Origin: Psilocybe cubensis
Taxonomy: Eukaryota
Direction of reading: 5' to 3'
DNA: 64,000 nucleotides
Assembly: GCA_017499595.2 (NCBI GenBank)
Contig: CM039007.1
Span: 434,001-498,000, forward strand
Each line of letters starts with the position of its first letter. Positions within the stretch are counted from its first letter, which is position 1. Below, in pieces: positions 8,323-64,000 of this stretch. Position numbers and translations under genes: made by a program. Below the pieces are notes generated by a model. The model did not search any database. It saw only the letters and a list, made by a program, of their open reading frames with translations, and was not told the origin of the DNA.

Positions 8323-8540
8323 TACAGCAAGTTTTACAAGAGAAATAGATCCAAAAGCGAGCAGAAGGAGGAACAATTCAAGGGAGAGTGAAGGTGAGGA
8401 AATAAACGGGCGGTGGTAAGTACTCGAACGGCGGACGGAGCTATAGACGGCTTTATCGGCCAGTCACAGTACCGTGACGAATTCTAAACTGTGTGCCGCA
8501 TGCGTGACGACAATGAGCTCGACGTCAACGTCGATGAGCT
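8323..8540. promoter_or_regulatory. Probable bidirectional promoter between ODC1 and SRP9/21
   Basis: Divergent start codons at 8322 (-) and 8541 (+), 218 bp apart. Confidence 0.55.
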
Positions 8541-9048
8541 ATGGTGTACATCCACTCCTGGCAAGAGTTCCAGGATGCTGCGGAATCCCTGTACCTGAAG
8601 GCACCTAATACTGTCAGTCTGCCTTTTGGTTGTGCCGTTCTTCCCTAACGGGATTCCCTCCCACCCTCTGCAGACTCGTTACTCTGTAAAGTGGAAATCG
8701 TCTGAAGGCAAACTGGTGCTGAAGATCACAGACAACACGACAGTACGTCGACATCTAACCAAGAGATTGTTTCTTTGGCTGATCCATATCGATCAGTGTA
8801 TTAAGTTCAAGACCAATTCGTCTATTTTCCTCAATCGATTCGAGTCGCTCAATCTATCCATCATGCAGAAAATGCAGAATCAACAGCGTCGCGAGGAAAC
8901 ACCAGCTGCTGCTCCCACCAGCGACGTGCATCCAGCAGCCGAAAATGATCGTGCTAGCCCTGTTCCTGCTCAAATATCAAATGCGATTCCTGTTCAGGTC
9001 CCGGCGACTGGTGGGGTAAAAAAGAAAAAGCCCAAAAAGAAGAAATAG
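8541..9048 (+). CDS. SRP21: Signal recognition particle subunit SRP9/SRP21
   Basis: MVYIHSWQEFQDAAESLY..NT|TRYSVKWKSSEGKLVLKITDNTT|CIKFKTNSSIFLNRFESLN, with a lysine-rich C-terminus; 2 introns. Confidence 0.92.
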
Positions 9049-34800: not shown

Positions 34801-37800
34801 TCAGAGGGCTGAGCATCTCGAGCAATCGCTTCTGTAGGAGGATTATCTGAGTCTGTGAGATTTTGTTCAACAAAAAGAGAAGCATCTTGTGTGGCTTCTA
34901 CTGGATCCACGGGCAGCAGGTTGAGAGTAGGGTCATTCACGACATCATCGCTTTGTTCTTGTTCTTGGTGAGCAGGGAGCTCGGCTGTTTCCGGGGTGTT
35001 CTGTAACGACACTTCATGAATATCAGACGAATAACAGAAAATACTGAGCTGACCTCTACAGGACCTTTCGACTCCTCAATCTGTTCAACGACAGGCGTGC
35101 CTTCACTGGCTTCTGTGATGACTGGTGTCTCCAACACTGGTTTGCACTCAACGATACCAATCTCCTCAATGACAGGAGTTTCCTCGACGGCTAGGGTCTC
35201 CTCATTGGCTTCATCGATGCCAGATGTTTCTTCGACGGCAGACTTTTCTTCGAGAGCGGGAGTGACCTCAAGAACATTTCCTTCACCAATAGGCGTATTA
35301 TCAACAGCTTGCTCGATGACATGCTGCTCACCGACAGCAGGAGTATCCTCAAAAACAAGAGTTTTGTCAACAGTTTTGTGGACGGCAGAGGTATCTTCAG
35401 CGACAGTGGAATCTTCATTGGCAGGAGGCTCCTCGATGGGTGGCGTCTCCTCATTGGCTAGAGTTTCAGCACCTGGCGCCTCCTCAACAACTAACAGTTC
35501 TCCAATGGCAGGAGTTTCCTTGGCTAGCGTCTCAACCAATGGTGTCTCCCCGATAACTGTTGTCTCCTCGGTAGCAGGCGTCTCCTCAATGGCAGGAGTG
35601 TACTCAACCGCAGACATATCCGAGACGACAGGAGTCTCTTCGACGGCAGCAGGCATGTCCTCAATAGTAGAGCTCTCATCAACAGCTATCGTTTGCGCGA
35701 TGACGGGAGTCTCTTCAACAGCAGGAGGATCCGAGACTACAGCAGTGTCCTCAACAGCAGGCATATCCGAGGTGACAAATACCTCTTTCACGGCAGGGGC
35801 CTCCTCAACAACATGCGTATCTGAGACGGTAGGAGTGTCCTCAACAGTAGGTGGCATATCCAAGACGGCAGGTGTCTCCTGAACGGTAAGTGTCTCCTCA
35901 ATGGCGGGCGTCTCCTCAACAGCAGCGGTGTCCTCAACAGCAGGCATCTCCAGAACAGCAGGCATCTCTAGAACAACAGGCGTCTCCTCAACAGTAGGTG
36001 TTTCCTCCACAACAGACGTCTCCTCAGCAGCAGGCGTATCCGAGGCGGCAGATGTCTCCTCAACGTCAAGTGTCTCTTCAACTACAGGAATGTCCTCTGC
36101 AGGTGTTTCCTCAACGGCAGGTCTCTCATGGACTGCAGAGGTTTCTTCAACAGCAATTGTCTTTGCCTCCTCAACAGCAGGAGTCGGTGCGTCCTCAACA
36201 GCAGGCGTCTCCTCAGTAACAAGAGTCTCCTCGACGGTAGATATCTCCTCAACAGGAGGGGTCCCCTCGACAGTAAATGACTCCTCAGCAACATGCGTAT
36301 CCGACGCGGCAGATGTCTCTTCCACGGCAGGTGTCTCCTGGACTACAGGCGTTTCCTCAACGGCAATTGTCTCCTCGACTGCAGGCATCTCCTCGACTGC
36401 AGACTTCTCCTCAACTGTAGGTGTCTCCTCGATAGCAGGTTCCTCCTCAATGGCAGATGTCTCCTCAACAGCGGTTGTCTCCTCCACGGCGGGTGTCTCC
36501 TCCACTGCGGGTGTCTCCTCGACTGCAGACTTCTCCTCAACTGCAGGTGTCTCCTCGATAACAGGCTTCTCCTCAATGGCAGATGTCTCCTCAACAGCGG
36601 ATATTTCCTCCTCGGTGGATGTCTCCTCCACGGCAGGTGTCTCCTGGACTGCAGGCGTTTCCTCAACGGCATTTGTCTCCTCGACAGCAGGCATCTCCTC
36701 GACTGCAGACTTCTCCTCAACTGCAGGCATCTCCTCGACTGCAGACTTCTCCTCAACTGCAGGTGTCTCCTCGATAGCAGGCTCCTCCTCAATGGCAGAT
36801 GTCTCCTCAACGGCGGGTGTCTCCTCAACGGCGGGTGTCTCCTCAACGGCGGGTGTCTCCTCAACGGCGGGTGTGTCCTCAATGGCAGATGTCTCCTCCA
36901 CTGTGGGTGTCTCCTCAACTGCAGGTGTCTCCTCAATGGCGGATGTCTCCTCCACTGTGGGTGTCTCCTCAACTGCAGGTGTCTCCTCAACCGACTTCTC
37001 CTCAACTGCAGGTGTCTCCTCGATAACAGGCTCCTCCTCAATGACAGATGTCTCCTCAACGGCGGGTGTCTCCTCAACGGCGGGTGTCTCCTCAACGGCA
37101 GGTGTCTCCTGGACTGCAGGCGTTTCCTCAACGACATTTGTCTCCTCGACAGCAGGCATCTCCTCGACTGCAGACTTCTCCTCAACTGCAGGAGTTTGCT
37201 CGACAGCAGGCTTCTCCTCAATGGCAAATGTCTCTTCGACGGCAGAGGTCTCCTCGATGGTAAAGGTCTCCTCGACTGCAGGCGTTTCCTCGATTACGGG
37301 CGTATCGGTGGCGGCAGATATCTCCTCGACGGTAGAAGTCTCCTCAACGGCAAGAATTTCCTTAACTGCAGGTGTCTCTTCAAGTGCAGGCGTATCCTCA
37401 ACTCCATGCCTATCATCAACAGCAGGTGTATCATCAACAGCAGGTGGCGTATCCGAGGCGGCAGTTGTTTCCTCAATAGCAAGCCCAGAAACAGGAGTCT
37501 CCTCAACGGTAGATACATCCTTAACAGCAGGAGTCTCCTCAATTGCAAGGGTCTCCTCAACAACATGAGTCTCCTCAACAGTAGGTGTCTCCTCAACAGC
37601 AAGTGTCTCTTCAACTGCAGGTGTCTCAATAGCAGGAATCTCCTCGAGGGTAGCTCTCTCCTTAACATCAGAAGTCTCCTCGACTGTAGAGGCCTCCTCA
37701 ATGGCAGGGATGTCCTCAACCACAGGTGTCTCCTTAACTCCAGGCGTATCCTCAACTCCAGGCGTATCCAGAGCAGCAGATATCTCCTCAACTACAGGTA

Positions 37801-40800
37801 TCTCCTCAACAGCAGGCGTATTGGCAGGGGTGTCTTCAATAGCAGGTGCGTCCTCAACAGTAGGCGTCTCCTCAGCAACAAGAATCTCCTCGACGGTAGA
37901 CGCCTCCTCAACTGCAGGTGTTTCTTCAACAGCGGGCGCATCCTCAACAATATGCGTCTCCTCCACAGCAGGCGGAATGCCCTCAACAGAAGGTGTATCA
38001 GCGACGGTAGGTGTCTCCACAATGGCAGCTGTCTCCTTTTCCGCAGGTGTCTCCTCTTCAGCAGGCGTATCCTCAACAACAGCAGTTTCCGCAACAGAGG
38101 GCGTATCCACGACGGTAGGAATGTCCTCAACAACAGGAGCGAAAGGCGTTTCTGCAATAGTAGGAGTGTCTTCAACAGGAGGCGTATCCGAGACAACCGG
38201 GCAGTCCTCAACAGCTGGCGTATCAGCATAGGAAGATAACTCATCAACTGCAGGACTGCCCTCAACAGCAGGTGTATCCAAGACGGCAGGATTTTCTTCA
38301 AGGATGGGAGTCTCCTCGAAGGCAGGTGCCTTCTCGATAGCTGGCGTCTCTTCAATGGCTATTGTCGTATCCAATGGCATCTCCTCCAAGTCAACGGCCG
38401 GTGCCTCCTCGATGGCAAATGTTTCCTCAACAGCTGGTGCCTTTTCAATGGCTTCCTCAACAGCAGGTATCTCCTCAATGGCATGTGTATCATTAACGGC
38501 GGGAGTTTCTTCAGTGACCAGAGTCTCCTCCACGCCAGAACTCTCCTCGATGGCTGGCATGCCCTCGATAACAGGATTTTCCTGCTCAATCGGCGAAGTC
38601 TTTTCAATCAACAAGGTCTCTTCGATGGGTGACGTCTCTATGACTGTTGGAAAGTCTTCTGTAGGACCTGAAGCCTCCTTCGATATATATTCCGCTGACG
38701 GCCCAGGGAATGGAGTGACTTTCGCAACAGGAGTTGCAAATTCTTCTGACTGGACGACATCGACAACCAGGTCGGACTCCGCGATCGGAGCAACATGAGC
38801 TTCAGTTACATTGCCTTTGGAATGGACATTTTGGACAACCTCCGAAGCCTGTGAATCCTCCACAGGAGACACTTTAGCGATAGTTGGAAGCTATGCGCGG
38901 TGTTAGCTATGCGCAAAACACCATGAACAGAGAAAACTCACGTCGACATTTGATTCAGTAATTTCAGCAGAATCACTTCCTAAAATGTCTTCAACATTTG
39001 GAGTATCAGCAATGGCCTCCACAGCATTATCCTGAGGAACAATGAGATCAGAAGTAGCAGGTTCCTCGGCAGCGGCACCACTATCAGCCGCTATGCCTTG
39101 AGGCGGGAATTCTTCACTAGCTGTAGCATTGTTTACTGGTGCCTCCAAAGTTGGCGCTGAAACCTCCACGGCTGATAGCTGATCGTCATGAGTGGCGTCT
39201 TTGAATTGACTATCAGCAACTGGCTCTGAGACATCAGTAGTAAGTGCTTCATTATCCTGTATATAGTCGTCAATAATTGATATCGAAGATAATTCCACGA
39301 CGACAGGTACCTCGTCTTCCACTGCAGCCTCTTTCTTATCAACCACAATCGTCGCTTGCTCGGTGGCCAGGCTTTTCTCCTCGACAACAACATTTTCATC
39401 CTCAGCAACAGATATTTTCCCTTCGACAATAGGTGTTTCCTCCTCGACAACTGGCTCGCCCTTTTCGAAATGCAAAGTGTGGTCCAATTGTTCCTCCACA
39501 CGAGCTGGCTCGATATCTTCCTGCTCGACAGCAGCAACGTCCTCCTCGGCGCTCAGTTCATCCACATCAACAGCTGGCGTTTCCTCCACGAATGGTGATT
39601 CGTCTTTGGCAATTTGTTGCTCCTTCTCAGTAACTTGTGATACCTCAACATGTGTCTGCGATGACTCGATGACAGCGGGGGATGTTTCGGTAACGGAAGT
39701 TGGCGCTTCGAGAATACCTGCAGACACAAATGGTGTTGCATCTTCGGTATTCAAGGTTGCTTCGTCATTGGCCGCGGGTACTTCAACATGTGGTGTTTCG
39801 ACCTCATCTTGTCCCTCCACAACGTCTGTAAGATGTTCTTGTGCAACTGCCTCGTCGACAGGCTCTTTGGGCACTGCAGCAACAGATTCGTGTAGTGCTA
39901 CGATGGGGGGTATCACGGCTTCAGCGATTGGTTCTTGATCTTCGACGTTGCCGACAGGTTCTTCAGAGACTTGCTCGTGCACCTCGACAGCTGGTGATTC
40001 AACTTCCGCAATGAGTGTTTGGGGTTCGGCGACCGCAGAGGTATCTTGTGATTTAGTCTCCTCAACGGCACTAACATTCTGAAGTTCGCCATTAACGATA
40101 GGTGTTATTTCGGTAGCCGGAGGTTCAATCTGCTGTATAGAAACACTGGCTTCAGTAACTGACGCTCGCACTGAAGCTTTTGTGACTGATACCTCAGGTT
40201 CCGCGGCAGGAGCCTCAACGATAGGAGCCTGATAATCCGCTTTGAAGGGTTGTAATTCAACCCCATCGTCCTGGTGTTCAGCAACAGGGGGTTGGTCTGA
40301 TTCAGGGATATATTCAGTAGCTAGAGATCTATCCACTTGATCATCAAGTTCAGCTGTAACTGGAACATCAGAAATTGGAACCTGGGACAGGTTTTCAGGT
40401 TTAGAAGCATCCGAAACTTCGGCAACTGGGGTTAGGATATCTGTAGCTGGCACTTCGGGTTCGACAGCTTCCGAGACTGGAGAAGACGCCTCGACAGCAG
40501 GAGGAATTTCTGCATTTGAAGGGAGGTCGCCAACCTCAGCAACAGGAGCAGGGGTTGGAGCATCAGCATCTAAAGCTTGAGGTTCGGAAACTAAAATATC
40601 AGCAACAACGGTCGACTCCTTGGCCACCGTTACTGGTGTCTCAGCGGAGTACATAGACTGGCTGTCGACTGGAAGTGGGGGCACCTACGTGCAGAATTAA
40701 TACTATGAAAAATAATGTAATCGTGTAAACACTCACATCGTCAACATTTGGTTTAATATTTTCAGCAATCTCGGCATCCGATACCTCTTGTTGTTTATCT

Positions 40801-43800
40801 TCAACGTCGGGGACAACAGCATCCACTTGTACAGGCTCGGAAACAACATCCTCCCTGGTTTGGTCAAGTTGAATTGAAGTCGGTTCCTCCAGGGAGGGCG
40901 TTTCATCGGTCACATCGACTGCAACTTCCGACGGTACAGGGGCTGGTTCAGCCAAGAGATTGTGTTCTGCGACGTGATCAGGCTGAACTTCATCTCCAGA
41001 GTGATCAGCGGGATTGACTTCGAAGGATGATTCCTCCAGAATATCGGAGGATGCATGCTCCAGTACCTCCGCCTCTTCTGCATTGAGTTCGTCGTCGAGC
41101 GGAGGAATGGCATTCAAAACCTGAGAAGGAACAATCTCCTCAACCGGAATGACGACTTCTGTCGGCTCGGAATCTGCAGAAGCTTCGGGTTCGGTATCAG
41201 AGGCGATCTTGTCGATGGTGACCCACGAATCAGGCTCCGCAGATGGGGTCTCAGAAAGAGCTTGAGTAGCCTCGGGTTCATTTTGCTGAGCTATAGCTTG
41301 CTCAACGATGGGTGCGGCTTGAGCCTCGGCGATGGCTTCTTCCAACGTGACTGATTGAGATTCCTGTTCATGTTCAGAAACAGTTGAGGTGCCGATTTCG
41401 ACAGGAACCGAAGACGGGTCAGCGAGGGTTACAGAATCTTCCTCAGCAGTTTGAATAACGGTTGACAGTGTTAGAACATCCACCGTTTGAACAACCTCTG
41501 GTACCTCTACATCAGTGCCTGAAACTGAATGCTCCGCAACAGGCTCCTCAGCATGGGTTGCAAGAGGCTCGGCATCCTGGATGTGGTCCTCAATCACTGG
41601 TGTTGGTGGCGCCTCCACGATAGGAATATTCTCGATGACGGGCGCCATTTCTTCAACCACAGGGGTTTCTCTTTCCACAACGGCCGGTGTTTCCTCCAGA
41701 ACAACTGGTGAGTCCTCAATCACTGGTACTTTCTCTCCGGCAGCCGGAGTTTCCTCAACAACAGGTGATTCCTCGATGACTGGTGCAACCTCGTCAAGAG
41801 CTGATTTCTCCTCCACTGCAACAGAAATGACGGGCGCTTCTTCGACGACCGGTGCCTCCTCGACCAGTTGTGCTTCCTCGACCACTGATGCTTCCTCGAC
41901 TACTGCGGCTTCCTCGATTATTGGTGCTTTCTCAACAGCAGCCGGTGTTTCCTCAACGTCAACTACAGGTGTTTCTTCCTCCTTAACGTCTGGTTCCTTC
42001 TCAACTGCTGGCGCCTCCTCCACGACTACTGGTGCTTCCTCCTTGACCACTGGTGATTCCTCGACCACTGGTACTTCCTCAACCGCCAGTGTTTTCTCCT
42101 CGACGGCTGGTGTTCCCTCAACAACTGGCGCTTCCTCCTCGACGACAGGTGTGTCCTCCACAACAGCAGATTTCTCCTCTACTGCAACGGAACTTACCTC
42201 GTCAACAATCGCTTCTTCCTCTGCACGAACTGCCGCATGTTCATCAACAATCTCCCGCTCAACAACCGGTTCTTCTCCCACCACAACGTCCTCCTCAACG
42301 ACTGGCTGTGCTTCCTCGACAGCTGGGGGTTCAGGCGATGCTTGTTCGGTGACTTCTTGCTCCTTGTCCGTAACCCTTGGTTCTTCCTCAATGCTCTCCT
42401 GCGCGGCGTCAACATCAACTAAGGGAGTTTCGGTAATCGAGGTTGGCGCCTCGGTAAGATCTGCTGCCTCAACAGGCGCAAATTCTTCAACATTCGACGT
42501 GGCGACTTCGTCAATGACGGCAGCGGTTTCAGTTGTCGTAGATGGCAATTCGTCAACAGCGGCGGGCGCTTCAACAACGGGCGATTCGAGTTCGTTTGAT
42601 TCAACCACTACCTCTGCAACCTCGGCAGGGTGTTCTTCCACAGGTTCCTCAACGGCAGGTTTGTCCACAACGGTAGGAGCTGTGACAACAGGTTCTTCGG
42701 CCGCAGTAGCAGGCGGCGGCACAGACTCGACAATTGCACTGGCATGCTCTTCAGAGACTTGTTCAAGAAGCGGAACATCTGTTTCCACGTCTGTGATGAC
42801 TGGCGGTCCGGGCTCGACGACAACGAATTCATCTTGAGCTTCGGGCACGACAAGGTCAGCGTTTACAGCAGGAGCAATAGCTTCAGCTGTTGGAACTTGA
42901 GGCTCTGGTACAGATTCGTCCGCTTCAGCAGTAGCCACCGCCGATGGAGCTTCAGCAACTGCAACTTGAGATTCAGAAACCGGAACTTCAGTTACAGTTG
43001 CATTATCGTCAGTCGATGCATCCTGTGTAAGCACTTCTTCGACAACGGGGGCTTGAGGTTCCGTAGAAGTGAGTTCTGGTTCCACAGTTGTTTCCTGAGC
43101 CTCGGACACAGAGGACACATCCGTCGAAGGTAGCAGTTTGGAGACGGGGGCTTGGATCTCTTCAACTGCAGCTTCATGTTTAGCTTCAACGGGTGCTTCA
43201 AGAACAGGGGCCTCGACTTCCGTTGCAAGAACTTCGGGTTCAGAGATAGCAGGAGCCTCAGTGACAGGAGGAGAGACTTCTGCAGCTGGTGCTGCGGATT
43301 CTGCAACTGCAGCAGGAGTCTCGCTGACTGGTGCAGGCTCCTCAACAGCTGGTGCTGGTGCTTCGGATTCTGCAACGGCAGCAGGAGTCTCGCTGACGGT
43401 GGCAGGTTCCTCAACAGCTGGCGCTGGTGTCTCTGCCTGAGTTTCGACAGCTGGCTCCGGAACCTCAGCGGCAGGAGCAGCAGCTTTAGCAGCAGCAGCT
43501 CCAGCGATTGCAGCTGTAATCGCTGCTCCAGCCGCAATAGCAGCCGTCTCGAGGTCTGGCGTGTCGGTCGTATCAGCAGGCTGCTTCGCGGCCTCGACAG
43601 GTTTCTCGATAGGCTTCTGCGCCTTCTCCGCTTTGGACGACTTGGACTTGGACGGCGCAGCCTTCAGCTGCACAACCTCCTGCTTAGCCTGCTCGGCGGG
43701 CTCCTCGATAAGCTCGCCCATCTCGCCAACATTCAGCGCTCTCTCCTTCTTCTTGCCTTTCTGCGACGACTGTGACGAGCTCGATGCAGTGCGCGACATG

Positions 43801-46089
43801 CTCCAGAAGCTGAAGCGGTTTCTGCCCGACGTCGAGAGCGCAGGGGAGACGGGGCGCGCAGATTCCGGGCGCGGGACAGCTGACGGCGATGGTGGTGGCG
43901 CGGGCCGCACAGTGAATGCCTGTTCAAGAACAAGCCACTTGAGCGTCTTCTGCTTGCCGCCCTCTTGAACGGGGCCGTACAGAAGCTGCGGAACGAGGGT
44001 CGACTTGAACTTGCAGATGATAAAGGTCGGCCATGTCGCTGTGATAGGATCGAGCAGCGAGTCGCTCCAGAAATCGATGAACGCTTCGTCAAGCTCGATG
44101 ACTTCGAGCTTGGTAGCGCGGACGATGGCGGTCGCCTCCTTCTTGACAGGGTCTGCAGGCGGCGGGGGTGAGACGGGTGGCACAGGTTCGGCCGAAAAGT
44201 CGACGCTCTTCCTCGAAACGGCTTTGCCGCGCTTGCTCGACTTCCTCGAGAGCGTCGTGGTGACTGGAGTAGTCTTCTCCAGATCCGTGTCGAATAGCGT
44301 CGACACGAGCGGGGCCATTGCAGGCGTCGAGTCGAGGAAACCAGACGCTGAGAACTGCACCCAGTCACTGCCAATAGCAGACGTGGCTGGGGGCTCCGTG
44401 GCGGACTTGCTATGCTGATGCGACGGCCTGCTCTGCTCGCCAACAGAGAAGGAGTAGCCGCGAGACGGGGACGACACAGGTCTGTCGGTCTCGCCCACAG
44501 ACGCTGAGTGTCCGCGCGCAAGAGACGGCGAGAGCAGACTAAACACGGGCGATTTCGCCTCCTGTGCTTTCTCCGAGCCTTTGTCTGGGACGATGGAGAG
44601 GAACCGGATCGTCTCGTCGGCGAAGATGTTGCTGAGAGGCGATGGGTTGCTGCCTGTCTTCGACGCAGCTGTAATCTTCGCCCATAGCTCGGCGTATTCT
44701 CCACCTTCGACTTTAGTGGAAAACGCGTCGGCGAGAATGTTGAGAGGGTGGACCTTCAACTTAGGCTTGCGCCTCTCAGATGATAGTTCGACTTCAATGC
44801 GAACGTAAAGAGCGTCGTAGAGTCGGGTAGTGAAGTGTGGTGGGGATAAAAACTGTACATCCGTAGTAGGTGGTGAGAGTCCTTGGGTATATGGGTATCT
44901 TCGTACAAGTTCGAGTAGACGAACGGGCATGCGTTGGTCGGTAGATTCATCGCTGAGGAATCATGAGATAGGGGTCGTGCTGATAATAATAAAAAATGCA
45001 AACTCACCGAATTCGAGATAAGAACAAATGTTCGAGCATTCGACCCATGCGTTCCCATCTGGCATAGAAAGATTTCCAGTCATCTTTGTCCTCCACGCGT
45101 CTGGAGGTTAACAACCACAGACCGAAAATCTTCGAGAGTTTGCTGCCAGACGTGCTGTTGGCCTCGGAGTGTGCAGCAAGCGAGGAGAATATCTCCAAAG
45201 TAGCAACAAGGAGATCGAGATGCGCTTTTGGCAGGGCCGGAGCCAACTTCTCTGAAAAGGCTTTAGGGGGGTACTCCGCGGCTGCTTCTGCATCAAGGAA
45301 AGCCTTGTACCAGCCGTCGTCGGTCCCAAAGCTGTCGCCCTCCAGCTGGAGGTGACGGAGACCCCATCTGAGGACGGCCGCGACGTCATGGGGTGAACGG
45401 GTAGACTCGATCTCGGATTCAAAAGGTGACGAGACTAGCGCGGGAGTAAGTGAGATAGCGGTTAGCGGTGTTTTCGGTTCCATAGAATGTATGAATTGGG
45501 ATAGTAGTCTGCGTTGGACTTCCGGGGATGCGGAATACCAATGAGGGTGCATTACACCCAGTGTTTCGAGGCCTACATCGATAGTTAGAGACAAATCTAA
45601 ACTGATAATGAAAAAAACGTTACCTCTAGCTACAATAGCTTGAGAACAAGCCCTTATCAATACAAGAGCCTCAAGAGGATTTAAGCGACGTCGTCCAATA
45701 ATTGCATCGCTCAGAAGGATGTTGGCGTCGGGGTCGACCGATAAGAAAGATTCAAGTGTGCGCGACGAAGGCTCTCCATTCGACGTCGAAAAGTCGAGCG
45801 AAAGTTGGGGGAGAGGTATCGGGGCCTTGTACGAGACTTGCGGGGGGGACGGACGCGATTTGACTTTGAAAAGGGAGAATCGATTGTCCCTCTCCTTTTC
45901 CTTTTCCTTCCCATTCTCTCCCTCGGTCTTGGATCCCTCTAACTCAAGAAAATTGGCAGCACTGGGTGATACATTGGGTGAGATGGCTTCAAATTTACCA
46001 TCGAGCAGTTCTCCGGGGCGTAAAGTCGTGGGCGAAGTTTCCGCGTCCTTTTCCTTCCGTCCGAAGACTTTGGACAAAAACGAGTGCAT
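31881..46089 (-). CDS. Giant (~4,500 aa) Msb1/Mug8 (DUF1708, RhoGAP-like) domain protein with an enormous acidic E/V/A/P/T-rich repeat tail
   Basis: N-terminus MHSFLSKVFG..GLETLGVMHPHW..SPHDVAAVLRWGLRHL..LAAHSEANSTSGSKLSKIFG..LEHLFLSRIR, then ELDEAFIDFWSDSL..WLVLEQ; long minus-strand ORFs (1429, 593, 1311, 206, 694 aa) separated by short GT-AG introns; stop TAA at 31881. Confidence 0.85.
35100..38700 (-). repeat. Coding 18-nt minisatellite (GTTGAGGAGACACCTGCA-like, VEETPA)
   Basis: Long run of 6-aa units such as VEETPA/IEETPA/VEDTPA; most homogeneous at ~36300-37260. Confidence 0.95.
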
Positions 46090-47878
46090 CGCGTGTGCCT
46101 GCACATACAAAAAAAACAGATTGAGTAAGTGGAATTTCGCTTGGAAAAAAGGTGCGTGAACGTGTATCAGTGCACTTACAACCGTAATCCAAGGTCCTTG
46201 AGGCCTAGGACTGTTCCAATGGCTGGCCGGTAGGAGTCGTGGAGGAAAGGAAGGTTGCCTGCAGGCTGCCACGTGCCGTAACCGCGACTGACGGCGGACC
46301 TTGAAATCCCGGAGAAATCGGTGCGACCCTTGCTCGCTTAGCTGCTCCTTGGTTCGACCACTTCCAGGCCCAAGGGAACTTCCAGTGACACTAACAGCTC
46401 TCAAGGGTTTTTTCTCAGCACCGTATTGTCCATTTTCTCTCAATATCCTCTCTGGAATGTCCACTGTCAATATCTATCCGTCAAAAATATGTTTTGATTC
46501 TCGAACCATTTGTAATTTGGAACTTGTGCGTCCGAAAGGCACGACATCCCCTCGCAAACAATAAACCAACCATGCTGGGCTCTGGGTCCCATCTGCTTCC
46601 ATAGCGCCGTTCTCTAGCCGTTCAAATCACTTCGTGATCGAAGCATATGCCACTGTCAGACCTAATCCTGATAATGAACTCTGTGCGAAATGCTCTATTC
46701 GGGGGGCTGCATCACCGGTTCGGACCAGGCGAGCAGGCATTGGGGCTCGCGAGATAGCTATCAAGCAGTCCGAGTCGATGTCTGCTAACGGGACTGTATT
46801 CAATAAAGCTAGGCTCCAAAGTTTCATTGACCGTTTTCGAGTTTGTGTGACATGGTGCTTACCCTCGTCATATCCCGGGTCTACTACAGATCATTATAAG
46901 TAGCTGAATGATAATGTACGTCATTCTGTCCCCTGTAGAACAAACATTAACTTGATCTCTTCATAGACTTGTGTTGCTACCATTATATAATAGATTTCAA
47001 CCTTTCCAAAGCAATAAATTAATCATACCACCCACCGGGTATTGGCCATTCACCGAAATCATCCAATCTGCCACCATTCCTATCATATGTACGCTCAGCG
47101 ATGATATATTTTAACACAAAGCACCTCTAACTCCCCCTCGTCTGTCTACCATGACCCATTCCAACGGTGCACGTCCCTCCAATCCCAATCTTGGAACCAG
47201 ACCTCTCCCTCAAACCCACACAAGGCTTATTCTTCCACTACTTCAAACAAATTCAAACGTACCAGACATCGGCATACAACATATACATAGCTCAGACGTC
47301 ACAGTAAATAAGAACGGTCATCACCCAACCGAACACAACCCCGCTGATATCGACCTTATATCAGACGCTCACAGCCCAGCATTACCCTTCCCAGCATCAA
47401 CGACACCTGCCATACATAGACCTTCCCCGCCCACGCACGTCCTTTTAATCGATTTTTACCTTTCATCTATATTTTTCTCTGGGAATATCCTCTCCGCAAC
47501 AAAATTCCGTCCCCTCTCCTGATTAACAGCCTGATATCTCATCGAACGGTTCTCCTATCGACCCAACAAATACGGTGCAGTGCTCAATTATCATCACTCA
47601 TCAACACGGCAGCATACCTCGCAGCAAAGCACGCCAATCCCCTCTACGAATATAGCAACTTCCTCTCTCGCAAAGGCCTATAAAAAGCCCTCGTGCCGTC
47701 CACATCTATTTGCAGCATCTCTGACTTGATCTTGATGCCCTCCCGAAGCAGTCTGTCCAAATACCCTTTGGGTGGTGGGGAGGGAATGTAAACATGTATA
47801 ATACCAGGATACCCACCGTATGCCTGAACCCCCCCCTCCTTGACAACACACCATTTTCATGCACCCTCCCCCTGCAGA

Positions 47879-54398: not shown

Positions 54399-55171
54399 CT
54401 ACGACACAAGCGGCGCCGCATACGCATACCGCAACAGATTCCGACCCGGGGGATTGGGTATGGACGATGCCAGCGGCACCGTCGTCGCCGTCACAACGGC
54501 GTTCAGGCCCTTGATCGGATTCGCAGTCACAGCGGCCATAACGACCGTATGCGGGATCTCAGGGTTCTCCATCACATCCGTCGTCGACTGCGCTGGCATC
54601 ATCCCTGAGCTCACACCCGACGACGACGAAGACATAGTCGTATGCACACTCCCCGGATTCCTCGCCGGCTCATCATTACTCTTATTCCCCAGCACCCCGC
54701 CCACAATCCCGCCCACAACAGCAAGAAGCGCGACGACACCAAGCACATAGCCCCATTTCGTGCGCCAGAACGCGGGGAGCTGCGAAGTCACGACGAGGCG
54801 CTGGGAACTCGCGATCGGGAGCTCGGCGTCGTGGTCGTGGTCATGGTTGGGGGAAGAGCCTGCGCGCGGGGCGGCGGAGGCGATGGATCGTCGGGTGCGC
54901 GCGGGTGCTAGCGCGGGGGTGGGCGGGGACGTGGACGGGGGGTCCCGGTCTGTGCGCGCGTGCGCATTCGCATTCGAATCGCGATCGCTCAAGTCTGCCT
55001 GGGATAGACGCGTGATGAGTATACCGTCACCCAAATATAAAGCACACTAAATCCCTCCTCCCCACAGTGACAATGAAAGAAAAGCGAGCGAAGAACGGTG
55101 CGTACCTCGATATCTATGTACTCCGACGAGACCCCGTTGGCCTGGTGGGCCTGGGGTGCGGGAAGGGGCAT
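54399..55171 (-). CDS. Small type II single-pass membrane protein, similar in architecture to 50998-51792
   Basis: MPLPAPQAHQANGVSSEYIDIE|..PAFWRTKWGYVLGVVALLAVVGGIVGGVLGNK followed by an S/T-rich tail; ends uncertain. Confidence 0.6.
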
Positions 55172-58059
55172 CTCTCGCCCTTCCTTGATCCTTCCTTCCT
55201 CAGGCGGAGGGGATTTCAGATCCCAGACGATGACGGTGGTAGCAGACAAAGGGCTGAAGCAAGTTGAAACGGGCACACTGCGGCGTTGTCAGCTGCTTGG
55301 ACCAGTTGTCTCTGAATCTAGACCCCTTGATTGCTCGTCGTCTCTCTTTCAACAGCAATGCTAGCACCGTCAAAGGTCAACAAGCAGCACAGGACAACAC
55401 AAACGGACAGAACACAGCTCACCTCGACCCTACACACCCAACGCGTTAGTCTTCGTCGCCGTCGCAGGAAACCAGAACCAATTGCAAGAACCAACAAACC
55501 CGAATCGAGCCAACGCAACCCTGTCGAATTAAATTGACACTCAGCAAAAAACTCAGAACATGTCTAGCAGTCTTCCCGGTCCATGCTCGGTCCCTGTTCT
55601 GTCCTCTTCAGTCGTTCCATCTGCCCCCCTGCTTCTTCTTAGTGAACCCGAAACAGGTCCAGGGCAGATATGTACCTATATACATACGTGCGAGTGTAGA
55701 CGAGCGTGTCCTTTGATTGGTAACCCGTTAACCCCCTTCAACCTACGCACCGTCGAATTACAGACGACACCTACGGCATTTGTATTTTTAAGTCTCCAAT
55801 TGCAGCAATAAAAATAATAAATATCGTAAGAACATTCGCGAACGGTCGTGATCATGATTTCTCTTCATGATGAAGAAGGGAGAAGGGATATAGTCTGAGA
55901 GGCCCGGCAGGAGGACTAAGTTGAGATTCTAGGAACAGATTACAACATCAACCTCAACTTAACATATCACATCACCACATCTCGACTCGACCTATAGCAA
56001 CCATGATCTATACAATCGACCATACGATCCCTCCCTCCCGCTACAGCTTCAACACCTCGCAGTCAAAATATTAATAACAATACAGCTTACCTTACATTCC
56101 CTATCATATCTATACCACAAGTTCACAGCATCCTATCATCACCTAGAAATGGTATCAAAAACGCCTCAAAGCCCTCAAAGCCACAAGCCTTCCTCGTCTT
56201 TACCTGTCGTCAATGCAGCTCGAGGATTTCTTCAAATATCATACCTTACCTCGATCGATCTAGAATCTGGATCCCACATTGATCACGAAAATGATAAATG
56301 AGCAACTTATGAAAGGTTCGAAGTCCTTCAAAGTTTAATCACCAAATTTCAAGTGTCGCCCTGCCGTTCACAGCTCATGATCACATCTCACTTACCCAGG
56401 TACTCATACCTTGCATCGTCTACCACCTTATTTATTTATTACTATCAACGCGCCTCATGGGGAGAACAAGAACGAGCTGCAAAGGCCACTTTTGAGCTTT
56501 CAAGTTTTTCGATTTTCAATTTTCAGCTTTCAGTTTGAAGGCTAGACTGGCATTCGATACCCACACTGTCATTCGAGACGACTTTCATATTCAACATAAC
56601 CCTAATAACCATAGCCATGGGACATCGGGGACGCGGACATTGACGTTGACGTGGGTATGTAATCCAAAAACCGCACGCGATGTCTTGTCATCTTGTCTTC
56701 ATCTACGTCAGACACAACGCTCACAAAAAGTAGTGATAACTATAGTCAAATCCCAACAACAACAATAATAATGTTAAACACAAGTTGATGACAGTGGGCC
56801 CGCCTAGCTCAGGAGTAGGACTCACACCACTCCAAGTTTTCCGACACCTCAAGGCCACATTCGACTCCCTAGGTCCGAGTCTCGTCAGTATTCTCAGCAT
56901 TCAATCAAAGGGCGGAAGAGGATCAGTGATGTCCTCTGACCTATGCTATTTTCAAGGATCACTAGCCAGAGCGCGCGCAGAGCCGCTGCGCAGCGCAGGC
57001 AGGTATCCATACACATACATGCCACACTCCGCTTTTGATATCCAGGACAAGAAAGCAACAGGAAAGCAGACAGGACAAGCAACAGTCACACATCAAGAGA
57101 GACAAACAGAGTACCGTGGTTCACAGTGTGAAGCAAGAAATTCGACTTCAGAGCGAGGAAAGAAGAGGAGAGGAGAGAGGAGGAAACATAGACCTCCCTA
57201 CCCCCTACCCCCGATTCCCCAACACTCAGGCTCTCCTCTTGAGTGGACAAAGAGCAGAGAAGAGAAGAGAAGAACAAAAATTGCAACTCAAAGACTGAGA
57301 GTTCACAGTTCATAGGTATGCGCATAGCAGAAGAACGTGAAGCCGTGTCCGCGTCCCCAGGTTTGTCCCAGGCCCTAGCACCACACCCTTCCACTCGGAT
57401 AGAGTGACCACTGCACTGCATAATTTCAGGGACGTATACCAGACATCACACTCGCACTCGCACTCGCAGACCGCAACAAGTCAGACAAGGGAAATTTCCT
57501 AGCGTCTTTCCCAGAATAAGCACGAATGCGAATGCGATGTGAATGCAAATGCACATGTACGGATACAGATATATGCGCCAAGGACAAGGGGTTAACAACG
57601 CACGGACCCGAATTCGATTTTGCTATTTGATTTGATTTCACCTCGGGACAATTTCACCATCCGCAACGTGTCGGCCAGCTCCCAAACAAAGAACACTGCC
57701 AGAGGAGTTGATAGATACCAGATACACGGATAGATTCACTGCAGCAGACAGGCGCAGACAGGCGCCCGCTAACATGGCGTCCAGGAACCACCTTTCATCG
57801 AAATTGCCACCCATCAAGCCGATGACACCAAGGACAAACCCAGAGCTCCAAATCAATCCCAATCCCAGTACTCCAGCACAGTCAGTCCTTCATCAAACCG
57901 CATATAATGATACAGACGGAAAGTGGCATCTGAGTACAGTTTTTGTGGGTCTTTCGGGCTCTCGCGGTCTTTTTGTTTTTTGTATTCTGTTTTTTTTGGG
58001 CTGTATATGTCTAAGGTTAACATTTTTATTGTTTATCGTAGGAGTGGAGGGAACAAGGA

Positions 58060-58345
58060 GACCCCCGTGGCATTCCTTGGGGGTAGGTCACAGACGTTCT
58101 GTGACCTACCGCACAAATTTGGCCCTGGGTCACAGAGCTGGGTGACTTTCACTGAGGCATTCAGTGAGCATCGCGACCTGCACCGGACAACTGCGGGTAT
58201 GTGCCGCCATTGATTTTTGTCTGTGGCCTCTAGTGGCACTGGCCAATATGCGCACAACACCGGTCAAACTCATGAGTGCCATTCAACGTGAAATGACCGG
58301 TTATTTTCTTTTGGTGAGTGTCCATTCTCCATCGCTCCAGTGGCC
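58060..58345. repeat. Cluster of inverted repeats, candidate element terminus / recombinase binding region
   Basis: GGTAGGTCACAGA-cgt-TCTGTGACCTACC (58082-58110, perfect 13-bp arms); GTCAC..GTGAC (58129-58146); TCACTGA-ggcat-TCAGTGA (58149-58167); ACCGGTCA..TGACCGGT (58259-58301); ACCCCC..GGGGGT (58061-58084). Confidence 0.75.
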
Positions 58346-58445
58346 CATCGTTGAAATCACCTAGTACAACATAATAAAAGAATGTACTCTATAAGATGTC
58401 TTATGAATATACATTTTCCCCCACCAAATTTTTCTGAGTAAACCA

Positions 58446-61400
58446 ATGCAGTCTCGCATACTATCTCGCACCGAGTCTTCTGAGCAAGCTCAACATGCTG
58501 AAATTATGATCCCTACGACCGACGCCAATGGTATTATCAACATATCCCGCGCTCAGTACATGTCTAGGCTAGCTGCTATACGACGGAAAGAGCCACTTCG
58601 CGAAGCATGTATTGATGCTAATTTGGCACCACCTAAGAGTGCAAATTTAGAGCGTCTTCGAACGATGTTGACGGACTACTGGTATGTGGCACACTTTATA
58701 CACTCTTATTTCTATATGCTTAGTGTGTTTTTTGGGTCGCGTTAACAGGTATCCTCCAATTGTCATGGAGGAATCAATTTCTAATGAAGTTTCTGAGCTA
58801 CAATCTTCTAGCTCGCAACATGCTAGCACATCAGTTTCCGTGTTGAGAGATAATAACGACGAAATCCTTGTTCAAGAATTTGGGGTTGAAGGTGCTGCTG
58901 CTGAAGAGGTTCTTGGGTACGATGATGATAGTGATAGTGACCCTGAGGATGAATTTCGAGAGGTTCTTGAGATCAACGATGAGCTCCTAGACCACACAGC
59001 CCTCGAAGACGACGATGAATCTGACTTGGAGACTCAAATGCAAGGTGGACCATTTCCAGGCGAAAGTTACACCAAATTTCAAACTCGGATCCGGCTCGAG
59101 GAGACAAGACGTGCAGAGAATAATCGACGAGCAGGTGGAGTTAAGACTCAAAGTGCGGTTATCAAAGATTGGAAGGTCATTCATTGGCTGTCTCTATGTA
59201 TACACATTCCAAATCTAACTTGAATATCTTTCAGATCTTTTGTGGTCATGCCTTGAAGACGGGTCAAATCAAAGATGAAATTGTTGATGCCCACCATCTA
59301 TTATTGTATATTCGGTACTGTTCCGAGCGACCAAAGCGAACACGCAAAGGCATTGACATACCTGGTACATTTATTGGCGCGGTAAGTCCTGATATTAGTG
59401 TATCAGATGACGTATAAAACTTACATTGATTCTCAGTCACACATTAAGAAACTATATTTTGGTGCTCTTCGTATCCGTAAAGAGCAAGAAGCCAAAGACC
59501 CCAGTCTTTCCCAGCGGCGCCCAGCAACCAATGTCCATGTTTGGGATGCACTTAAAGGTCGTATGAATGAAGCTCTTCGACGGGCTCGAGAGTCTGTTTC
59601 TTTTTAATCTGCTACACTGATTATAAGTTGCTAATTCCATGTCATCAGAGGCCTCATACCCGAAGAGGACGCGCCGGACATTGTGGCCAATACATTTCTC
59701 TCCGGAATCACAGAAGCGCAGATGAACAGTGTTGGAAAAGGCTTTCTTATGCATCGAGAGTGTGAGTAACTTTTTGAATACTTTGGTGTAATAATTTGAC
59801 AATGTTTTCTAGTACGTTCGGTTATCAATGGTCATTTGAGCTGGACTGCACAAAATGCATCAGGAAACCGTGGGGATGATTTCCGAGCGCTTCGACTGGC
59901 TGAGCTGCAGCCATATGTCTTTCTTCATCCAAATAAAGAGACGGCCATTCCGTGTGTTCTCGGATGTCAAGGAGAGGAGAAGGCAGGTGCTAGCAGAGGA
60001 ATGAGAACGGTAAATTTAAGCTCTCAATTCACTTGTTCCTATCTGATATATTATCTACACTATTCAGAAAGTTAATCCGGTGTATAGTGTATTTATTGCC
60101 CACCTGGATCCAGTTAAATGCCCACTGGGAGCATTTGCTTTTTATCATCATTTCCTTCACGACGTCATTGATATCACCTCAGCATTAGATATCAACTGGT
60201 CGATCAATAAAACCTGGCGACAAGTACGTGTTCTACATGGCAAAAAGTCATATGCGACTCCATACCATGAGCAAAGCCTGTACAATCTCTATGTTAAGGC
60301 ATTTTCCTCTGCTGCATTCACATCACATTTGAAAGCACATCTACCACGTCATATCCTTGGATATAATCAAGAGCGCATGGGGTAAGCTCAAATGTATTTA
60401 GTTAAATGCTTAATGACTTATTTCAATTCAGTGTTGATCCCTCTGTAACATCTCGGATGGGATGGGTACGAGGAGAGACTTATTATGATACCTATGCACC
60501 GGCACTTCCAAAAGAGGTAAACTTTCCCCTTCATTATCCCAAAACCTACTAACTGACTGTGCACGTATTAGGCTGTACTCGGTGCACATGGATATAAATC
60601 TCATGAGGTGTATGACCCCATTTGGCGTCATGTTCACATCCCCGAGGTATTTCTGTGTCTTGTATGCCCAATGGCTGAAACAATCTATTCAGATGTTGTT
60701 GGACGACAAAATCTGTCTGGTGCCGCAAACTACTGGTCAATGGTTATGGAGCTACGTCCCTATCTGTTCCAGGTAAGAACTTTGTTAATTGTACAGTGTT
60801 GTATTAATGTTATACTTTAGTGTGGTGCTGCCATCTTTCAAGAAGTACCAGAATCAGCATTATTTCGGCTTCCGGCCTTTGCTCATCAAGATGTCCAGAA
60901 TTGGATGAAGCACCAGTTTCCAAACGATTTTTCTTTGTTGAAAGCGAGTGCAGGAAGCAGGGTTGATCTCCAGCGGATCCAGAATCAGCTCCTTCAGCTT
61001 GCCCTTGAAGAAACCCGATCATTACTTGCATCACAAAGTGTTCAATTAGCTGAAGTTGCTCGAATTCAGAAGATAGTTGAGCAGCGTACTCAAGTGTTAT
61101 CACCGGCAAAGGGATATTCAGCAGTCCACTACTCGTCTAGAGTGTCTACAGCATCATCGGGTGTGTCACATAGCTGTTTCATGTCGTGTTTAATATTTAT
61201 TGACCTCTTTTCTTAGCTGCAGTTCATGAGCCACTTCCTGCTCTGCAGCTCACAACAGCCAATCATGACACATTTGAAAGTGCTAACTGTGAAAACGACG
61301 ACACCGGTGTGTATATGGCTGAAAATGGGGATTTCCGAGCATTTGCAAATGGATCTCCAAAAACCCCAACACATACCATTCGCCGGAAGCGTTCACAGGT

Positions 61401-62146
61401 TGATTTAGTGCTACCGAGTGCGTCTGCTTTCACAGAACAGGGTAGGTTATCACCTTTACCATATATATGTTTGCTAAATACAAATTTGTGAATACAGGTC
61501 AGCCACAATTCTTTTGGCCTCCGGTCTTTGGACAGAAATCTGTGACATGGGACCAAGTATTTGCTCTTATCAAGCAACCCGAGCATTTATGGGACTGCTG
61601 GAAGCCATCAAAGACACTTGATAAATATGATCTTCACGATCAATGGGCGTGCTGGAGTGTTGGTGAGGGGGTAAATGATGCAGATGGTAATCAGACATCT
61701 GTCAAGCCGCCTCTACGTGAGGTGGAACGTCATTTCGGATCATTCAATCCGGAGGGTAAGCATCTCAAAAGTTGGCGAAGCGGAATTTCATCCAAAGTAA
61801 GGAAATTTGACATTTATATCAATTCAAGGACTTACAGAAAGCATAGGACCGCAAATTCTGGCAGCGGTTTCGAGAAATTCCTGAGTTTATTGACTCAGAA
61901 GCTCATAACCGCAAGGTCTCTCCACTCTCAATTATTGATGAACTTGAGATTCTAGGCCAGCAAGACAGACGATTAAAGGGACTTTCAGCACTTACAAAGC
62001 ATATCAAATTAAAACGAGAGGCTGTATCTCCACAAGCAGAGACGGAAGCTCCACAGGTAGAAGCGGAAGCCTCTCAACCAACCAAGCGGAAAAAAGCCGT
62101 AGCTCCTCGTCGTCCTTCAAAAAAGGCAAAGCAGGATGAATTATGA
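58446..62146 (+). CDS. Tyrosine recombinase (NDC10-II/Crypton-type) with C-terminal GCR1_C DNA-binding domain, ~1,010 aa, 13 exons
   Basis: Open spliced frame: SGNRGDDFRALRLAEL, GEEKAG, HLDPVKCPLGAFAFY, KAHLPRH, SRMGW..YYDTYAPALP, ELRPYLFQ; GCR1_C-like DQWACWSVG..PPLREVERHFG..SWRS..DRKFWQRFREI; basic NLS-like C-terminus. Confidence 0.88.
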
Positions 62147-62400
62147 CTATTAATTGGTATTTTTGACGCTCTTCCTTATGTACTTGACTGTACTAGTTTA
62201 TCTTTCATAGTTTGTGTATATTTATGCAGACAGAGTAGCCGCAGACAACCATGATTGTAAAGTTTCAAATAACAAGATAATAATGAATACTTAATGCCGC
62301 AGCAGCTATGCAACTTGCTTTCGTTTAAACTCTCCTTTAACTCGTCTTGATTTCAAACACACATCTTGCAATCCAACACAACAATTGCTGCATTTTCAAC

Positions 62401-64000
62401 ATGGGAATAAATGGACTTTCAAAGGTGCGTACAACGGAATAATGTTAGGTATAGTCTTACAGTGTCAAGATAGGCGATTAAACCCATTGAGGAAAGAGCA
62501 TCTCTATACGAGAGTGCCTCTAAGGTTTCTATGGTGGTCCTCTACGAATTCTTTTCATGAAGCTGTGTTACTTTTTAAAGTATCCTGCTATCATGGTCTT
62601 TGTGTACGATGGACCGGGACGTCCAGCACTCAAGCGTGGTCGTCGTGTCCAAAATTCTCCACCATTCTGGACAGCTCCCTCTATGGACATAGTACAAGCG
62701 TTTGGATATTATGTCCACCAGGTATGCCATAATTTATTCTATTGAATAACACTAGTAGCTAAGTTTTGACGTTGCCTTGTTTAGGCACCCGGTGAGGCTG
62801 AGGCCGAGCTTGCTATGCTCAATCAACACGGCCTCCTTGATGCAGTCATCACAAGTGACAGTGATGTTTTTGTGTTTGGAGCGACTACAGTCTATCGCAC
62901 GTATGTAGACAATGTTATCAAATTGATTGAATTGGGATTGAAATCATGATAATAGCATCCCGGCCAAAACAAGACGTTTTGAAGATGAAATTGCTGTATA
63001 CACGGCTGAAAACATATCAAATGTTATAGGACTAACAAAGAAAGGTCTCATTTTAGTGGCACTACTTTGTGGAGGAGACTATGACGCAGTAGGACTCGAC
63101 GGATGCGGTCCAGCTACTGCTCTTGGCCTCGCAAAATGCGGATACGGTGAAAGTCTGATTCAAATAGTTCAAACTTTTCACGGAGAGCGATTGACTGCTG
63201 CCATTGCTCAATGGCGTTTGGACCTTCAAAAGGAACTTTTCTCAAACTCCAGTGGACATCTGAGAGGAAAGGAGCGATCACTGGCCAAAAGCATTCCTGA
63301 TTCTTTTCCCAGCCTTGATACACTCTCACTCTACTTGGAACCTGTAGTATCTGCCGGTGCTTCGTCCCATCTTGCTCCTGTTTATGACTTTAGGCACAGA
63401 GAACCATCTTTGAATCGTCTTGTTATGGTGTCATCGACTCATCTGGGGTGGAATACAGAAGAAATTATAAAGGACAAGTTCAAGAGAAATGTATGGGAAG
63501 GTGTCTTTCTGCAGATGCTATACTCGGTGAGTTGTCTATACTACGTTTAAATGCAATCGTAGCTGTTATTCATTGATCTGGCATATTACAGAAGTTTATT
63601 CTTTACGACCACACCCAGCAGATCCTTGCCACACCCAATATTCAAGCACGTTTATTCAACCGTAAAATTGCTAATCGAGCTGGTCGTATGGCACCAAATA
63701 CTTCTAGATACCAAGCCAGATTATTGGTATCGGCACAAAACTTCATCGCATTGATGAACCCCTCATTTCAGTCGTCTACTAATTCGGACACATTTCGAGC
63801 TTGGGTCCATATAGATGCCTTACCGGAAAGATTGCTTCAAGGTTAGTTTTGAGACAAATGGTATTTTCAGCGCTTACATTGACCTCTAGAGCTATCTGGG
63901 GATACTAAAACCACACAAAAAGCTGACAAGTCTCGGGTCATGTTTGTTGAAGGATCTTCTGGAGATAGCAGCCAACAAGCAGCTGCATTTCCAGAGCCAA
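62401..64000 (+). CDS. XPG/Rad2-family PIN-like nuclease (GEN1/Yen1-like), N-domain apparently damaged, runs off window
   Basis: MGINGLSK|AIKPIEERASL, LRILFMKL..VFVYDGPGRPALKRG, HQ|APGEAEAELAML..DAVITSDSDVFVFGA, H3TH LVALLCGGDYDAVGLDGCGPATALGLA. Confidence 0.85.

Follow-up and report, generated by a model that had tools for sequence, protein, structure and literature searches.

To our knowledge no class of eukaryotic DNA transposons is less well understood than the Cryptons, whose ends are hard to define and whose excision and integration have never been reconstituted. Crypton-Cn1 and its relatives, the CryptonF DNA transposons, were reportedly described by Goodwin et al. in 2003. In this work we describe a locus of this kind in Psilocybe cubensis. 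It lies at the end of a stretch of 64,000 nucleotides (nt) from GenBank assembly GCA_017499595.2 (contig CM039007.1, positions 434,001 to 498,000 of the forward strand), which we call the window and in whose positions all coordinates are given. In our view the region from about 58 kilobases (kb) onward is likely to be the left portion of a DNA transposon of the CryptonF type that has two genes of its own, one for a tyrosine recombinase and one for a GEN1-like nuclease.

In the available text of Kojima and Jurka (2011; PMC3212892), Cryptons are described as excising in the form of a circle and integrating by recombination at a short common sequence, and ‘4- or 6-bp direct repeats’ (bp, base pairs) are reported at their termini. 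The Psilocybe element resembles the CryptonF elements in its tyrosine recombinase with a putative GCR1_C-type tail, in the short core at its junction and in its fungal host; it is multi-copy and mobile, and long terminal or inverted repeats appear to be missing from its ends. It differs from them in having a second conserved gene, that of the nuclease, in its size of at least 6.8 kb, and in a 7-nt core and subterminal sequence that are conserved across recombinases only 34-56% identical to its own, which we call P0001. A second protein function does have a precedent, as the oomycete element CryptonF-2_PS and the CryptonS elements are reported to carry a C48 (Ulp1) peptidase (PMC3212892, as far as its available text goes). 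This is, however, a peptidase and not a nuclease acting on DNA structures, and the hosts are stramenopiles. The words ‘XPG’ and ‘nuclease’ have 0 occurrences in the text of that paper as available to us. Our literature search, outside which lay supplements (including the element lists of PMC3212892) and subscription journals, found nothing that links Cryptons to XPG, flap-endonuclease or GEN1-type nucleases, and no relevant literature on Cryptons in Psilocybe was found.

The other system that invites comparison is the Starship of the Pezizomycotina. There, too, the recombinase is the first gene and points inward from one end, and presence or absence of the element varies between strains. However, the Starship captain carries DUF3435, whereas the recombinase here is of the NDC10_II/Crypton type, and Starships measure tens to hundreds of kb, whereas two relatives with both ends defined (metagenome loci L031 and L027) measure 6.7 and 9.7 kb and show no cargo. 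In the part of a 2024 Nucleic Acids Research survey available to us (PMC11162782), no bounded Starship is reported in Basidiomycetes. A preliminary description of this DNA had proposed a larger, Starship-like element in which a CryptonF-type recombinase leads a set of cargo genes. The left end of a mobile element, the intact CryptonF/Ndc10-type recombinase and the presence of more than one gene all stand. The Starship analogy and the term ‘cargo’ find no support: the second gene is a conserved partner gene across genera and metagenome loci, DUF3435 is absent, and L031 contains two genes only. This tempers the idea of Starship-like cargo carriers in mushrooms, at least at this locus.

The evidence for mobility comes from four public sequencing runs (X1, X5, X8 and X11), which we aligned to positions 55000-64000 at 90% likeness. 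The host flank is covered in all four, and in all four it departs from the window sequence after 58057 and continues in the same unrelated sequence (one contig each in X1, X5 and X8, and 28 reads in X11), which is the empty site. Depth in X8 and X11 is 0 from 58311 onward, save for a small low-depth fragment in X11. The contigs that carry the element fit from 58051 and are preceded by other flanks (two contigs in X1, and one in X5 that fits from 58047), so in those strains the element is located elsewhere. Because both the flank (to 58057) and the element (from 58051) fit the same seven nucleotides, GAACAAG at 58051-58057, these 7 nt form the core of the junction and are the presumed crossover core or target. 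The end of the host-like DNA had been placed near 58035; the boundary is real, and reads and contigs move it by some 16-22 nt, to 58051-58057.

One of the contigs with the element, X1 record 7 (6786 nt), has an end that falls exactly at the left terminus. Its mismatches with the window number 27 in 4474 and 7 in 1478 letters (about 99.5% identity), and it spans the recombinase gene, the spacer and the second gene, plus 676 nt past the end of the window. Homology between copies therefore continues beyond the recombinase stop at 62146. A more diverged copy in X5 (about 8%, or 292 of 3511 letters) fits 58051-62297 and then passes into similar but more diverged sequence. In P. cubensis as a whole there are at least nine gene models of the recombinase family, in three 90% clusters; within the window, self-comparison (blastn and tblastn) finds no second copy of the 57.9-64 kb region. 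The locus is polymorphic and recently mobile, and it is not a fixed syntenic gene. This disposes of two readings that the preliminary description had held open, a single-copy, syntenic, domesticated gene and an ordinary Crypton in which homology between copies ends at the recombinase stop. As a side observation, X11, which is without the element, has low-depth reads (about 0.2-3.6 per bin) over 60418-61320 with a loose end at 60703; these come from a fragment or a diverged relic at another place in the genome of X11.

Along the plus strand the left boundary passes from T-rich host DNA to a palindrome and then to the recombinase gene. Next to the core lies a conserved subterminal region (58058-58140, plus strand) that reads GAGACCCCC...GG.ATTCC and goes on through the palindrome to a third GGTCAC at 58128. 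The palindrome is perfect over 13 nt (58082-58094 and 58098-58110) and is built on GGTCAC/GTGACC, with more partial copies nearby. Counting both strands, the 64-kb window has 19 occurrences of GGTCAC, three of which fall inside the 48 nt from 58086 to 58133. We presume that the repeats would be binding sites of the recombinase or of its GCR1_C domain. No further copy of the terminal motif was found in the window at up to two mismatches, the spacer between the two genes included.

The same terminus is found in relatives. A regular expression for it has 11 matches in 303,716 nt, made up of the window and 10 metagenome loci. All 11 lie upstream of a recombinase gene, on its strand, at the point where similarity between the copies starts. 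An alignment of the 11 termini has 25 invariant columns, all of them in the core or inward of it; the flanks are unalike and have none. Conservation runs from GGAACAAG-GAGACCCC inward and includes the GTCAC, GTGAC and GGTCACA positions further in; the motif positions of the inverted-repeat cluster are kept in the 10 other loci. The core is exactly GAACAAG in seven of the 11 termini; the group of related copies around L027 has GACCATG, GAACATG or GAACAGG, which are GAMCAKG variants.

The recombinase gene occupies 58446-62146 on the plus strand, stop included, with its start codon 395 nt inward of the element boundary. Our splice model was curated by hand and has 13 exons: 58446-58681, 58749-59175, 59235-59381, 59437-59591, 59649-59761, 59813-60009, 60068-60381, 60432-60516, 60572-60772, 60821-61160, 61217-61441, 61498-61796 and 61847-62146. 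All 12 introns are of the GT..AG type and 48-67 nt long, and the spliced frame is free of stops over 1012 codons. The product, of 1012 amino acids (aa), equals P0001 letter for letter; at NCBI this protein belongs to two P. cubensis loci, JR316_0010482 and JR316_0010486 (accessions KAH9476570 and KAH9476574).

NDC10_II, GCR1_C and DUF3435 were the profiles named for this protein at the outset, and NDC10_II is its sole Pfam match (40.4 bits in the whole of P0001 against a cutoff of 26.3, and 27.8 bits in exon 7 alone); DUF3435 has no match at E <= 0.1. The catalytic region lies at 59866-60895 (aa 378-650, plus strand). The candidate active-site codons are those of R379 (59869-59871), H516 (60338-60340), R519 (60347-60349), W541 (60463-60465) and Y551 (60493-60495), all on the plus strand, and we take R379, H516-x-x-R519, W541 and Y551 to be the R-H-R-W-Y pentad of tyrosine recombinases. 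Among 26 aligned homologues H516-L-P-R519 is invariant, while R379 (within GNRGDD), W541 and Y551 are each found in 90% or more. The sequence of P0001 gives chance-level matches only to solved structures (E >= 0.45). Its AlphaFold model (mean predicted local distance difference test score, pLDDT, of 69) is placed by Foldseek closest to Ndc10 (4aco, 6gyp and 3sqi), with Flp and Cre next. The kinetochore protein Ndc10/Cbf2 is the best match by Pfam family as well as by fold, but according to the available text of PMC3212892 it is a single-copy host gene product without a catalytic site, whereas here the pentad is conserved and the gene is mobile.

Beyond the catalytic region, at 61626-61957 (aa 857-950, plus strand, interrupted by intron 12), lies a GCR1_C-like C-terminal region with a putative role in DNA binding. 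It is placed by comparison with relatives: GCR1_C matches at E <= 0.01 in nine of the 26 aligned homologues, and in the Trametes homologue P0055 the domain (895-977; 25.8 bits against a cutoff of 23) is collinear in the alignment with residues 857-950 of P0001. In a protein atlas the nearest clusters are NDC10_II/GCR1_C proteins of Basidiomycota, Ascomycota, oomycetes and diatoms, and clusters with DUF3435 first appear at rank 16, with a score of 0.90. Judged by these alignments and by the predicted fold, the product is a CryptonF-type recombinase and not a Starship captain. A further stretch in exon 1 (58446-58681), at aa 40-78 or so, is conserved across the 26 homologues as R-K-x-P-L-x-x-A-C...P-K-S-A-N-L-E-R-L-R. 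It is predicted to be helical (pLDDT 77-88) and has no Pfam match; by eye it presumably resembles a DNA-binding motif of the SAP type.

After a spacer of 254 nt (62147-62400), a second gene starts on the same strand with an ATG at 62401 and runs past the end of the window (62401-64000, plus strand). The layout first reported for this region, with an inverted-repeat cluster behind the boundary, an inward-pointing and fully open 13-exon recombinase gene some 400 bp inside, a second DNA-processing gene 254 bp further on, and no copy of the terminal motif between the two genes, has held up in each of these parts. XPG_I matches in the exon at 62785-62946 (E 4.4e-15), and two annotated models of the second gene reach beyond the window, P0068 by 30 aa and P0081 by 64 aa. 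When P0081 (486 aa) is compared with solved structures the best matches are 5cnq/5co8 and 6grb (E 7.1e-39). Rad2 (E 1.1e-16) and XPG/FEN1 come far behind 5cnq/5co8, the match to which begins only at chain residue 74. The code 5CO8 occurs in the accessible part of a paper on the crystal structure of GEN1 (PMC4695337).

On these comparisons the product is a nuclease closest to the Holliday-junction resolvase GEN1. It shares with GEN1/Yen1 of the Rad2/XPG family the motifs VFVYDG, APGEAEAE, SDSD and GGDYD. It differs from them in being transposon-borne and multi-copy and in that the window copy is without the first Asp segment; its activity is a prediction. Neither XPG_N nor GEN1_C was detected by Pfam in the element-borne nucleases. 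GEN1_C (PF18380), the chromodomain-like C-terminal domain of GEN1, is likewise absent from the precomputed Pfam domains of P0068 and of the hits at least 39% identical to the related nuclease P0069, and is common among hits less similar than that. Related nucleases occur as multi-copy ‘PIN domain-like’ proteins in Pholiota, Flammula and further Agaricales, and more distant fungal relatives carry XPG_N, XPG_I and GEN1_C together.

The window copy of the nuclease gene is damaged. About 158-160 nt are absent from it at 62523/62524, where the frame is shifted, and X1 record 7 carries 158 additional letters at exactly this place. The gap fits the frame break seen between the 62474 and 62524 frames of the gene. 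In alignment the absent segment holds the first-Asp motif, ‘G[VI]D.S’, which is present in the paralogue P0004, in P0069 and in the host-type protein P0070. The four later acidic motifs are intact in the window copy, so that XPG_I is still present while the set of acidic metal-binding residues is incomplete. Going by the alignment, the nuclease gene of the window is internally deleted and other copies are not, and the nuclease of the window copy is probably inactive.

The pairing of the two genes is widespread. A query with exon 7 of the recombinase gene yields 67 homologues in Agaricomycetes. NDC10_II is followed by XPG_I in 11 of the 16 proteins scanned, which are fused gene models from Psilocybe, Gymnopilus, Mycena and Favolaschia, all of the Agaricales; nine of them are above the XPG_I cutoff, and two (P0014 and P0015) have XPG_I only at E of about 0.05. 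A weak GCR1_C match lies between the two domains in seven of the 11, and all nine fused models tested are collinear with both genes of the window. A scan of metagenome contigs, from soil and of fungal origin, gave 46 loci. In 12 of them the sequence continues for 0.9 kb or more past the recombinase gene in the downstream direction. The nuclease gene follows downstream on the same strand in seven of these 12 (L001, L009, L011, L017, L027, L029 and L031). When counted by groups of related copies, there are about five groups with the nuclease gene and three without.

In a recombinase tree the nuclease-bearing loci are spread over the whole family, and loci without the nuclease are nested among them. 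This is a midpoint-rooted FastTree tree of sequences projected from BLAST segments, with at least 70% coverage of residues 186-730 required (80 rows, with 23 of the 46 loci kept), and it is used descriptively only. Taken together, these comparisons indicate that the second gene is a conserved partner gene of the recombinase family and not cargo. The pairing would explain part of the ‘PIN domain-like / XPG-I’, ‘Ndc10 domain’ and fused ‘Flap endonuclease GEN-like’ models in annotations of Agaricales. Nuclease genes of the same family are also found on the opposite strand just outside a bounded recombinase element (L006 3501-4226 and L023 4-817), which suggests that the elements cluster or insert side by side in both orientations.

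Two related loci allow the whole element to be bounded. L031 is bounded at 964-7701 (6.7 kb) and contains only a shortened recombinase gene and the nuclease gene. L027 is bounded at 3857-13521 (9.7 kb); about 2 kb of unexplained additional DNA separate its genes, and it contains an internal duplication. The two have both ends in common and unrelated flanks; the right end that they share reads ...GGGTCACCGGGAGCCCGCTATAGAACC (also written ...TATAGAAC), with flanks that differ afterwards. Pfam has no match in the open reading frames tested within and around L027 and L031, and host-type genes lie outside. Downstream of the nuclease, no conserved third gene was found in six loci by Pfam or tblastx. 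In the 71 open reading frames scanned, Pfam finds only ordinary domains of host type, at distances that vary (AMP-binding, PhzF, prolyl oligopeptidase and TPPC8), and tblastx similarity is confined to the related pairs L027/L031 and L001/L017.

A third locus, L014, appears at 29-2243 as an internally deleted copy, with a recombinase fragment (aa 323-586, 68% identical) and without a nuclease gene. About 1.2 kb after the fragment come three GGTCAC repeats and ...TGTATAGAAC, an end similar to that of L027 and L031. From its structure L014 is possibly a non-autonomous derivative.

The copies in P. cubensis may also be arranged in arrays. KAH9476572 (1436 aa) and KAH9476576 (1448 aa) are diverged models of recombinase plus nuclease, from the same 3.08-Mb (megabase) contig as the two loci of P0001 and 78% identical in exon 7. 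If the accession numbers follow gene order, they suggest the succession pair A, pair B, one unknown gene, pair A, pair B, an arrangement that rests on accession numbering and not on DNA. There is no B-type copy upstream in the window, so the window copy would open the array, whose remaining units would follow past 64000. On a 2.30-Mb contig, the four consecutive tags JR316_0013355-13358 (P0002, P0073, P0075 and P0076; 1063, 281, 730 and 1053 aa) fall in one 90% cluster, which suggests a second tandem array.

What else could these observations mean? One possibility, which we think rather unlikely, is that the two genes stand at the front of a far larger element, Starship-like or composite, with further genes, e.g. 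the whole A-B-unknown-A-B block. The identical recombinase at JR316_0010482 and 0010486, each with a 1436- or 1448-aa recombinase-nuclease model two accessions on and with one unidentified gene between the blocks, would suit such an element, but tandem arrays are also what one would expect wherever site-specific integration restores its own core. No right end is visible in the window, and all that can be read from the empty site is that other strains lack the inserted block in its entirety. The X1 element contig, in contrast, is a separate 6786-nt unit that ends exactly at the left terminus and has other flanks. L031 is bounded with two genes only, the extra 2 kb or so of L027 is without a Pfam match, no conserved third gene follows the nuclease in the six loci, and there is no DUF3435 captain. 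Could the second gene instead belong to the host, or to a neighbouring element, beside a single-gene Crypton that ends within 62147-62400? This is largely refuted and we give it very little credence. The X1 contig, from copies at other flanks, is unbroken at about 99.5% identity across the spacer and the second gene, no terminal motif is found in the spacer, and a loose-end consensus shows the X5 copy to be recognisably similar just past 62297. Classical CryptonF elements are indeed described as one-protein elements in the available text of PMC3212892, some related loci appear to be single-gene, and outside the element L006 and L023 carry nuclease genes that point the other way; yet four genera and seven metagenome loci repeat the arrangement, with order and strand unchanged. 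A domesticated, recombinase-derived host gene that is fixed here, like yeast Ndc10/Cbf2 and Gcr1, is refuted and has next to no probability left. The best Pfam and fold matches are to Ndc10, itself a domesticated relative of Cryptons, but the site is empty in other strains, other sites carry copies, the family is multi-copy in P. cubensis, and the catalytic R, H-x-x-R, W and Y are conserved.

That said, our preferred reading, a CryptonF-type transposon with two genes of its own, has a number of observations to contend with. The right end of the window copy lies beyond 64000, with the X1 contig giving only a lower size bound of about 6.8 kb, and the 20 nt that flank the empty site on the right are not found anywhere in the window at up to three mismatches. 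The right end of L027 and L031 agrees with their left core (GAMCAKG) only in GA.C, which fits the reported 4- or 6-bp direct repeats of Cryptons. GCR1_C stays below every threshold in P0001 itself (no match at E <= 0.1), and an exon-by-exon Pfam scan does not find it either. The nuclease gene is damaged in the very copy that we describe, and no nuclease model lies between the four recombinase models of JR316_0013355-13358. Five of the 12 metagenome loci have no same-strand downstream nuclease (L006, where it is on the opposite strand, and L007, L008, L023 and L041), and L006 and L007, which are 97% alike, lose their similarity about 200-300 nt past the recombinase gene. From these five loci and from this end of homology it follows that the nuclease is not universal in the family; it may be dispensable, and single-gene relatives probably exist too. 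Finally, the basis of the reading is sequence, with the excision circle and the enzyme activities being predictions.

How might such an element move? Following the accepted Crypton model, the recombinase would excise the element as a circle, and the recombinase and its GCR1_C-like tail would bind the subterminal GGTCAC repeats. Re-integration would proceed by strand exchange inside a GAAC/GAACAAG core common to the circle junction and the target. Integration would then regenerate the core at both ends and so invite tandem insertions, which would explain the suggested tandem Crypton copies past the window. Tyrosine recombination passes through a Holliday junction as an obligatory intermediate. 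In the least certain step of the scheme, the nuclease would cut this junction, or a flap intermediate, perhaps when the second strand exchange is inefficient. If the reaction requires the nuclease at all, the window copy, in which the gene is damaged, would have to rely on other copies.

We tentatively propose, as a possibility that we hold to be doubtful at present, a transposition by two enzymes. The recombinase would carry out only the first pair of strand exchanges and the GEN1-like nuclease would resolve the junction or process a branched intermediate, in a pairing that would go far back among the Cryptons of Agaricomycetes. That the nuclease is not always kept is indicated by its damaged gene in the window and by relatives with a single gene. 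If the proposal is true, a eukaryotic transposon would here supply the resolvase for its own junctions. One handle on Crypton chemistry is the left end, which is known exactly and has a conserved core and subterminal repeats; a live presence/absence polymorphism in a culturable species is another, and a conserved second gene whose closest relatives are Holliday-junction cutters is a third. With these the chemistry of Crypton transposition becomes testable.

The DNA upstream of about 58 kb carries host genes, namely SRP9, Vps36/EAP30, a DUF1687 gene and a giant low-complexity gene with an Msb1 domain. The last of these lies at 34940-46473 on the minus strand, in pieces with open frames of 1317, 593, 1439 and 489 aa, and has matches to LED-repeat, Spt5-CTD-like and Msb1/Mug8 families. 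The flank of the element also varies in length between the sequencing runs: contigs of X5 and X8 omit 57047-57469 (421 nt) and have 38 other letters instead, and a contig of X1 omits 56854-57089. At 55464-55472, 11 and 15 raw reads of X11 depart from the window at two places, and the loose ends at one place are the reverse complement of those at the other. The pattern resembles that of a further transposon, inserted in X11 and missing from the window, with terminal inverted repeats and a target duplication of 8-9 bp.

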